From positions 1,163 through 65,162 of the forward strand of contig JAQVAY010000001.1 of the NCBI GenBank assembly GCA_028690575.1: DNA of 64,000 nucleotides. The letters are read 5' to 3'. The DNA comes from Bacilli bacterium (GTDB lineage: Bacteria > Bacillota_I > Bacilli_A > RFN20 > CAG-826). A program made the position numbers and the translations under genes. The notes beneath the pieces were generated by a model. That model worked only from the letters and a program-made list of their open reading frames with translations, was not told the DNA's origin and ran no database searches. This document shows positions 21,922 through 41,117 of this stretch, in pieces (positions within the stretch are counted from its first letter, which is position 1; every line of letters begins with the position of its first letter).

Positions 21922-21997
21922 TGGTGGATCTGACCGGGATCGAACCGGCTACCTCCTCGTTGCGAACGAGGCGCTCTCCCAGATGAGCTACAGACCC
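21922..21997 (-). tRNA. tRNA-Ala, anticodon CGC, 76 nt with encoded CCA
   Basis: Manually folded cloverleaf: acceptor GGGTCTG/CAGATCC with a G3:U70 alanine identity pair, discriminator A73, anticodon loop TTCGCAA, T-loop TTCGATC. It is highly similar to E. coli tRNA-Ala. Confidence 0.85.
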
Positions 21998-39404: not shown

Positions 39405-41117
39405 ATGGCATATAAAGCTCTTTACAGAAAATATCGACCAAATACATTTGATGAGGTTGCTGGTCAGCAACATATTGTTAAAACAATTAAGAACGCTCTT
39501 GCAACAGGAAAAATTGCTCATGCGTATCTTTTTGCTGGACCTCGCGGTACAGGAAAAACTACGATGGCTAAGCTTCTGGCAAAAGCTCTCAATTGTGATG
39601 AAGGTATCGGAAAACAATGCAATGAATGCAAAAATTGCATTGCAATAAACGAAGGAACCCATCCAGACGTTTTAGAAATTGACGCTGCAAGTAATAATGG
39701 CGTTGATGAAGTTCGCGATTTAATTGATAAAGTCAAATACAGCACTATTTTAGGCAAATATAAGGTTTATATTATCGATGAAGTCCATATGATGACCACT
39801 GGGGCATTTAATGCTTTGCTAAAAACATTAGAAGAGCCACCAGAGCATGTCATATTCATTTTGGCCACTACTGAACCTCATAAAATTTTGCCAACTATTT
39901 TATCTCGCTGCCAAAGATACGATTTTTCCAAAGTAAGCGATGATGATATCCGCAATAGATTAAAAGACATTCTCGAAAAAGAAAATGTCGTTTATAACGA
40001 GGCTGCTATCAATTTAATAATTAAATTATCTGAAGGAGGAATGAGGGACGCTCTCTCAATTCTCGATCAAGTTTTGGCATATTCAAGTAATCGTTTGATT
40101 GAAGATGATGTTTTAGATATCTTCGCTCTTGAATCAACAACAGAAAAAGTTGAATTATTAACCTCAATTGGCAAAGGCGATTTCACTGATGTGCTGGATA
40201 GACTAAAATCTTATGTTTCTCGAGGCACAGATATTAAGCGATTAACTGATGATTTATTGGTTCTTTTAAAAGATGTGTTGATATATAGGGCAACTAACCG
40301 TTTTGACTTTGTGGAGCAACTTAATAAGAAAGAAATATCAGCTCTTTCCAGTCTTTTCAATGAAAAACAAACCATAGAAATGATTGATATATTAATGAAC
40401 GCTCTAAAAGATTATAAAAACGTTACTTCTATCACTCCAATTTTTGAAGTTATGTTGTTAAAATTGTCCTCGCTAAAATTTGAAAAAAAGGAACCTGTCA
40501 CTGAAGTAAAAGAAGCGGCTGTTTCTGAAATTAAAGAAGAAAAAGTGATTGAAAATGCCGCAGAAATCTCTCCAATTGCCCTTAAAGAGGAACCTGTTGT
40601 GAAAGAAAAAGTCGAAGTAAAAAAACAAGAAGTTGTTGAAGAACCCACCTTCTCATTTTCATCCGTTGTATTGAACGAAAAACCCCTCATTTTGAATGGC
40701 GCTGAGCATGAAGAAAGCTATGCTATCGATGATAATATGATGATTAAAATAATGGCAACAAGCAAAAAAGAGATCAAAACAGCTTTACTTGACAGCTGGA
40801 AGAAGATCAAGCAATTAAATGGTCACCCAGTATTAGACAAAGCTTCAATGCTTCTTATAGATGGTCACCCTTTAGTGGCAGGAAACAAAATTTTAATTTT
40901 GGAATATCCTCTCGATAAGGCTGTAACAAAAGTTAACACACAAATTAATCAAAAAGACATACAAAATGTTATTTTTAACATGTTTGGAAGAAAAATGTTT
41001 GTTTACGCTGTTTCCCGTAGAGAATCGATTCGACTTCAAAAAATGTATATGGATTTGGTACAAGTGAACAAACTTCCCAAAATTAGCGATATCAGTCTTG
41101 AATTCAAAGGAGAATAA
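39405..41117 (+). CDS. dnaX: DNA polymerase III subunit tau/gamma
   Basis: Walker A GPRGTGKTT, Zn module CxxC...CxxC and the SRC motif. Confidence 0.92.
   Translation: MAYKALYRKYRPNTFDEVAGQQHIVKTIKNALATGKIAHAYLFAGPRGTGKTTMAKLLAKALNCDEGIGKQCNECKNCIAINEGTHPDVLEIDAASNNGVDEVRDLIDKVKYSTILGKYKVYIIDEVHMMTTGAFNALLKTLEEPPEHVIFILATTEPHKILPTILSRCQRYDFSKVSDDDIRNRLKDILEKENVVYNEAAINLIIKLSEGGMRDALSILDQVLAYSSNRLIEDDVLDIFALESTTEKVELLTSIGKGDFTDVLDRLKSYVSRGTDIKRLTDDLLVLLKDVLIYRATNRFDFVEQLNKKEISALSSLFNEKQTIEMIDILMNALKDYKNVTSITPIFEVMLLKLSSLKFEKKEPVTEVKEAAVSEIKEEKVIENAAEISPIALKEEPVVKEKVEVKKQEVVEEPTFSFSSVVLNEKPLILNGAEHEESYAIDDNMMIKIMATSKKEIKTALLDSWKKIKQLNGHPVLDKASMLLIDGHPLVAGNKILILEYPLDKAVTKVNTQINQKDIQNVIFNMFGRKMFVYAVSRRESIRLQKMYMDLVQVNKLPKISDISLEFKGE

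Follow-up and report, generated by a model that had tools for sequence, protein, structure and literature searches.

In Escherichia coli and other enterobacteria, the dnaX gene carries a frameshifting cassette (Rfam RF00382) in which the slippery heptamer A_AAA_AAG is combined with an upstream AGGGAG and a downstream stem-loop, and the efficiency of this cassette is about 50%. The shiftiness of A_AAA_AAG depends on a single tRNA-Lys(UUU), which is the condition of only about half of bacteria (PMC5009743), and bare V_VVA_AAG heptamers in E. coli reach ~0.3% frameshifting, or at most ~3.7% with the best 3' context (PMC4066793). For dnaX of Thermus, transcriptional slippage is known (PMC3711429), and poly-A variants of dnaX have also been described (PMC5009743), the documented slippage runs consisting of 9–10 A (PMC3711429, PMC5009743). 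The dnaX genes of Bacillus subtilis, Staphylococcus aureus and Streptococcus pyogenes give tau only (PMC3290774). The subject of this study is a perfect A AAA AAG heptamer found in the dnaX gene of an uncultured Bacilli bacterium, within a stretch of 64,000 nucleotides (nt) of contig JAQVAY010000001.1 that was analyzed as a whole and is hereafter called the window. Most probably, this gene is an ordinary tau-only dnaX of the Firmicute type with an incidental heptamer, and not the site of a programmed recoding signal.

The locus shares with the E. coli cassette the gene family, the heptamer, the codon phase and a nearby stop codon in the -1 frame. Codons 360–362 are GAA AAA AAG (40482–40490), phased identically to GCA AAA AAG of E. 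coli; the -1 frame is closed after four codons here and after one in E. coli, and the predicted product of 362 + 4 = 366 amino acids (aa) would be, hypothetically, tau cut after domain III. The locus differs from the cassette in having no Shine-Dalgarno (SD)-like element, no stem-loop and no match to RF00382, and in a heptamer that is not conserved in sister species. A preliminary description had recognized the gene as dnaX with A AAA AAG in the E. coli codon phase and had read the -1 frame as G-T-C-H followed by TGA, for a product of about 366 aa, both of which were borne out by the open reading frame (ORF), the Pfam matches and the sequence. Its statement on position held in one part, the heptamer indeed lying at the end of domain III (Pfam boundary at residue 357, last helix at 344–355), and failed in the other, the site not being homologous to the point at which E. 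coli gamma is truncated. According to the gamma coding sequence, the E. coli shift site occupies codons ~428–430 of the 431-aa gamma, ~57 residues past the crystallised domains I–III (1jr3_A, a 373-aa chain), whereas the present heptamer follows domain III by ~5 residues, sitting 5 residues past its last helix at the start of a disordered linker.

The E. coli dnaX cassette was folded and searched alongside the window as a positive control. The 30 nt upstream of the heptamer (gttgttaaaattgtcctcgctaaaatttga) contained no GGAG, GAGG or AGGA, while the control displayed AGGGAG upstream of its heptamer with a 10-nt spacer. Folds of 121, 70 and 40 nt were calculated, and the 40-nt fold was taken as the fair comparison because the E. 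coli control was weakly significant at 70 nt (z = -1.21). Over the 40 nt downstream of the heptamer, the folding energy was -5.0 kcal/mol (z = +0.16) and the best hairpin, of 6 base pairs, started 21 nt away; the same length of the control folded at -19.7 kcal/mol (z = -2.35; 5 of 200 shuffled sequences folded as well), and its hairpin started 6 nt away. Longer downstream folds at the heptamer revealed no significant structure, with z = +0.68 and z = -0.71. The downstream folds of the five other heptamer-bearing relatives were equally without significance (z from -0.37 to +0.99), three of the heptamer-bearing relatives giving 40-nt folds of -0.2 to -1.8 kcal/mol, and an RNAalifold consensus built on the six heptamer-bearing sequences contained 0 conserved pairs. 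In addition, RF00382 gave no match at E ≤ 1 in 40300–40700, and a search at the gathering score was negative for the full window and for 11 related loci, compared with 96.8 bits on the E. coli control.

The heptamer and its -1 stop are within expectation throughout, with neither avoidance nor enrichment. AAAAAAG occurs 90 times on both strands of the window, and 58 copies are found on the sense strand of its 62 long ORFs, nine of which are in the shift-prone phase and belong to nine different genes. Shuffling of synonymous codons within genes predicted 10.0 ± 2.9 in-phase copies of A_AAA_AAG for these 62 genes, compared with 9 observed, and across 767 genes of the family 79 copies were observed against 78.1 expected. 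Synonymous shuffling of dnaX itself placed the heptamer at codons 360–362 in 11.5% of trials and anywhere in the gene in 16.8%. The linkers of 132 non-redundant dnaX genes contained 13 in-phase A_AAA_AAG against 15.0 expected; in the same genes, a 17-codon segment at the C-terminal boundary of domain III contained three against 1.3 expected (P = 0.12), and these three cases are phylogenetically linked. A TGA closes the -1 frame soon after the shift site, at four codons, though a stop within four codons is common to 46% of dnaX positions and the median -1 run is five codons. A family-wide use of canonical X_XXY_YYZ heptamers in the dnaX linker was also considered and was rejected on finding a depletion, with 76 observed against 109.9 expected. 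As it stands, the locus represents a worked negative: given the protein sequence alone and an A-rich genome, chance puts a perfect E. coli-type heptamer where gene, phase and location all fit in roughly one case out of 9. It is a warning that, where G+C is low, a heptamer by itself is not enough for a recoding site to be called.

For the comparison with relatives, 160 related loci provided 151 full-length dnaX genes, and the DNA of six more clusters was obtained by protein search followed by contig look-up. The genus-level clade comprises ten lineages with 72–100% identity. The heptamer is intact, with AAG at codon 362, in six of them (the window, L161, L162, L164, L081 and L082), and it is broken to A AAA AGG by K362R in the remaining four (L001, L002, L163 and L165). 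L001 and L002, both with AGG, are the two nearest GTDB species representatives, at 88–90% identity. A neighbour-joining tree rooted on three outgroups required at least three independent changes between AAG and AGG. Among the carriers of the heptamer, codon 360 differs (GTA in L161, CAA in L164), and the distance to the -1 stop is 4 codons in the window, L161 and L162, 10 in L164, 13 in L081 and 7 in L082. In relatives at ~68% protein identity or less, the motif is absent and the linker is not alignable, and an in-phase A_AAA_AAR occurs in the linker of 25 of 152 dnaX genes at scattered positions.

Other variants were observed at or near the same site. In L008 (58% identity), codons 360–362 are ACA AAA AAA, and A AAA AAA thus shares residue number 361 with the heptamer of the window although its linker is unrelated; it arose separately, by chance, where the junction is rich in Lys. 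The same-species variants P0001 and P0003 carry E367V in the DnaX protein, a change that, if it came about via GAA to GTA, would remove the -1 TGA and extend the tail from 4 to 12 codons. The dnaX gene of a same-species metagenome contig, L166, has 5 mismatches to that of the window in 1713 nt and contains one extra A, 18 nt downstream of the heptamer, that splits it into a 374-aa ORF (P0019, ending in ...EVKRSGCF) and a 190-aa ORF resuming at residue 381; in formal terms, this dnaX has two ORFs. P0019 was considered as a natural gamma and rejected, as it derives from a single extra A on a contig with 4.6x coverage, where an assembly or sequencing error is the most likely origin. Because AGG is rare (7% of Arg codons), 'hungry-codon' slippage on A AAA AGG was also considered for the four lineages that carry it, and was dropped in view of no supporting signal.

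The preferred explanation is that the heptamer arises from Glu-Lys-Lys at the start of the disordered linker, which is rich in Lys and Glu, in a genome of 37% G+C with a preference for GAA and AAA. Full-length tau would then be produced from the single ORF, and -1 slippage, if any, would occur without programming and at a low level, from sub-percent to a few percent at most, because there is neither an upstream SD-like element nor a downstream hairpin. Given the rates of bare heptamers in E. coli (0.3% to at most 3.7%), the 366-aa gamma-like product would be minor even in the most favourable case, probably a trace by-product instead of a selected subunit. From the sequence, phase and position of the heptamer, the absence of stimulators, the non-conservation and the chance frequency, we infer such a low level of slippage and the lack of a functional gamma. 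With tau-only dnaX of Bacillota, the gene has in common the domain architecture, the dnaX-ybaB-recR-tmk-holB neighbourhood, the affiliation to Bacilli, the single ORF and the lack of recoding signals, the incidental heptamer being its sole peculiarity.

E. coli has markedly fewer in-phase copies of A_AAA_AAG than expected, and A7 and U7 are under-represented there in all three phases (PMC4066793). The same heptamer is not avoided in phase among the family genes (ratio 1.01), which argues that it is not markedly slippery in this lineage. This lack of avoidance would fit the decoding of AAG by a dedicated tRNA-Lys(CUU), which, if present, would lower slippage further. The window contains one tRNA gene, for tRNA-Ala (anticodon CGC; 21922–21997, minus strand), as its only RNA gene detected, and no tRNA genes were found in the related loci.

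The functional claim of the preliminary description, an E. coli-type frameshift leading to a gamma-like subunit, is not sustained in the face of the absent stimulators, the AGG codon in four of ten lineages and the chance-rate occurrence. Its own reservations proved sounder. It had noted no convincing SD-like or stem-loop stimulator, in agreement with the upstream scan and the folds, and the RNA structure prediction that it had suggested as a check, carried out by folds and RNAalifold, yielded no stem-loop of note. It had further held that loss of the heptamer in close relatives would speak against a frameshift, which is in part what was observed, with the heptamer kept in six lineages and lost in four, and its caveat, that the heptamer may have arisen by chance where lysine codons make the sequence rich in A, is, at the chance-level frequency, the best-supported reading.

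Several observations weigh against an incidental heptamer. Frameshifting has been proven at some sites that lack known stimulators (PMC4066793), and the heptamer is common by descent to lineages up to ~28% apart in the DnaX protein (the window and L081/L082). When pairwise synonymous identity was measured over the ten lineages in 492 segments of seven codons, codons 357–363 ranked third (3/492; 0.90 observed vs 0.59 expected, z = 2.75), and the third positions of codons 357, 358, 360, 361 and 362 showed no synonymous change in the ten lineages. These observations could be accommodated by a selected -1 frameshift of low efficiency that operates without stimulators, where tandem tRNA-Lys slippage would generate the 366-aa gamma-like subunit (domains I–III) in part of the genus. 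The right phase, the sensible position just past domain III, the early -1 stop and the retention of the heptamer in six of ten lineages across that divergence are all consistent with such a site. It is nevertheless very improbable, considering that AAG gave way to AGG in four lineages with at least three independent flips, that the -1 stop varies in position, that stimulators are absent and the dnaX linkers of the family show no enrichment, that in-phase A_AAA_AAG goes unavoided in the lineage, and that tau is the sole product of those Firmicute dnaX genes tested to date (PMC3290774).

A bolder form of this idea is that the uncultured Bacilli genus from gut or digester makes a ~41 kDa gamma-like DnaX by stimulator-independent -1 slippage on A_AAA_AAG, exactly where domain III meets the linker, the site toggling between AAG (on) and AGG (off) from one sister species to another, and this must be rated as decidedly improbable. 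If it were true, the PolC-type replisome of Bacillota would have its first gamma, and recoding would be seen to be labile in evolution; a real site would extend the production of tau and gamma by frameshifting to Bacillota and would prove a bare heptamer to be a selectable recoding site. The Bacillota replicase is regarded as using tau only.

The synonymous signal itself derives from a nearly invariant consensus of the ten lineages, CTA AAA TTY NNA AAA ARG GAN, at 40473–40493 (codons 357–363), in which residue 360 varies among E, V, Q and R and residue 362 between K and R. Most of the peak is due to CTA at residue 357, a rare Leu codon (8.5% of Leu codons) that is kept in 9 of the 9 Leu-bearing lineages. 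For the segment starting at residue 358, the rank falls to 22/492 (z = 1.85), and the unrelated dnaX regions 36–42 and 508–514 equal or exceed codons 357–363 in synonymous score. The G at the third position of codon 362 is invariant, though AAG accounts for 23% of Lys codons and AGG for 7% of Arg codons. This invariance could be explained without function by the single-step mutation between AAG and AGG or by avoidance of A8 runs, the latter being proposed because AAA at this codon would create an A8 run, which is near-absent.

Another alternative assigns the stretch CTA AAA TTY NNA AAA ARG GA a different role in RNA or DNA, for example as an internal SD-like AAGGA/AGGGA pause site where domain III meets the linker, with the heptamer as a by-product. 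The retention of CTA, together with the invariance of the codon-362 G and the following GA in all ten lineages despite the codon usage, agrees with such a role, which is still very unlikely: the statistical support is weak and is matched by the two unrelated dnaX peaks, the SD-like motif has no start codon after it, no Rfam match and no conserved structure were obtained, and the codon-362 G is also accounted for by the single-step mutation and A8 avoidance. Two particular forms of this idea were rejected. An internal translation start after the SD-like AAGGAA would need an ATG, GTG or TTG, none of which lies within range in the window or in the relatives, and the conserved TAAAAT / AAGGA stretch was likewise discarded as the location of an internal promoter or terminator, no promoter-like or terminator-like site being found in 40250–40750. 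No function was found for the conserved stretch at codons 357–363, and the residual synonymous signal is unexplained but weak.

The A7 run enclosing the heptamer also brings Thermus-type transcriptional slippage into consideration, in which mRNAs gaining or losing an A would lead to early termination in the -1 or +1 frame. Thermus thermophilus dnaX (A9) and the two-ORF dnaX genes of GeneTack (poly-A of 7–10 A) likewise possess an A-run near the gamma/tau junction and stops in the alternative frames; in contrast, the present gene is a single ORF with a run of A7, A7 runs are common in its genome and the run length is not conserved. Slippage of the Thermus type is associated with ~9 or more A. 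Stops are present in both alternative frames, the +1 frame after the run reading AGG AAC CTG TCA CTG AAG TAA (RNLSLK-stop) and ending after six codons, but this is common in a 37% G+C gene. In the 767 family genes, A-runs of length 7 or more fall short of expectation whatever the codon phase (ratios of 0.39, 0.39 and 0.55, or 2- to 2.5-fold), so that long A-runs appear costly. In the 62 ORFs of the window, runs of 7 or more A number 49, of which just 4 reach 8 A and none reaches 9; A7 is thus clearly tolerated, and the run at the heptamer is one of many. These counts suggest that tolerance stops sharply at A7 and that A_AAA_AAG is not selected against as it is in E. coli. Although dnaX is a known target of slippage in Thermus (PMC3711429) and poly-A dnaX variants are known (PMC5009743), slippage on this run is extremely unlikely, as it is shorter than the documented 9–10 A and shrinks to A6 or A5 in L161 and the four AGG lineages.

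The identity of the gene was established from several lines of evidence. Pfam matches comprised DNA_pol3_delta2 (PF13177) at residues 20–177, DNAX_ATPase_lid (PF22608) at 182–228, DNA_pol3_gamma3 (PF12169) at 233–357, which corresponds to domain III, and a weak match of DnaX_C (PF20964) at 479–531 in the C-terminal tau domain, and the E. coli gamma/tau structures in PDB were matched with E = 1e-74. The AAA+ module, the lid, domain III, the C-terminal tau domain and the dnaX-ybaB-recR context together identify the product as the clamp-loader protein DnaX/tau. An AlphaFold2 model, calculated from a 46-sequence alignment with a mean predicted local distance difference test (pLDDT) score of 77, showed a folded C-terminal domain from ~418 to 570 behind the linker. 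The fraction of Lys plus Glu is 0.38 in the linker vs 0.16 in the remaining DnaX. The coordinates of the features are collected in Table 1.

Table 1. Features of the dnaX gene and its linker region, in positions of the window
Feature	Coordinates	Strand	Basis or remark
dnaX (DNA polymerase III subunit tau), 570 aa	39405..41117	+	One unbroken ORF; Pfam and PDB matches
Last domain III helix, residues 344-355	40434..40469	+	AlphaFold2 model; Pfam domain III ends at 357; invariant LLKL ends at 354
A7 run enclosing the heptamer	40483..40489	+	One among 49 runs of >=7 A in the 62 window ORFs
A AAA AAG heptamer, phased X_XXY_YYZ (3' base of codon E360 plus codons K361 and K362)	40484..40490	+	Sequence
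Disordered Lys/Glu-rich linker, residues 361-415	40485..40649	+	pLDDT <50 in AlphaFold2 model
Hypothetical -1 tail GGA ACC TGT CAC TGA (G-T-C-H-stop)	40490..40504	+	Sequence
AAAA run with one extra A in same-species metagenome contig L166 (3601-3642)	40508..40511	+	Sequence comparison
Second in-phase slippery-type heptamer A AAA AAA (GTA AAA AAA CAA; V405 K406 K407)	40619..40625	+	Sequence

The same linker contains a second in-phase heptamer of the slippery type, 45 codons 3' of the first, and its -1 stop likewise comes after four codons. At the locus, prfA/prmC on the minus strand are adjacent to dnaX-ybaB-recR-tmk-holB. The window has a G+C content of 36.9%. TGA acts as a stop codon here, the 62 long ORFs ending with 39 TAA, 16 TAG and 7 TGA and presenting no in-frame TGA problems. 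The close relatives of the dnaX locus are all uncultured Bacilli or metagenome-assembled genomes labelled 'Erysipelotrichaceae', from gut, rumen and digester. Two low-complexity ORFs run antisense over the dnaX linker (40412–40690, minus strand, 92 aa; 40473–40628, minus strand, 51 aa); they are Phe/Ser-rich mirror images of the Lys/Glu codons and very probably not genes.

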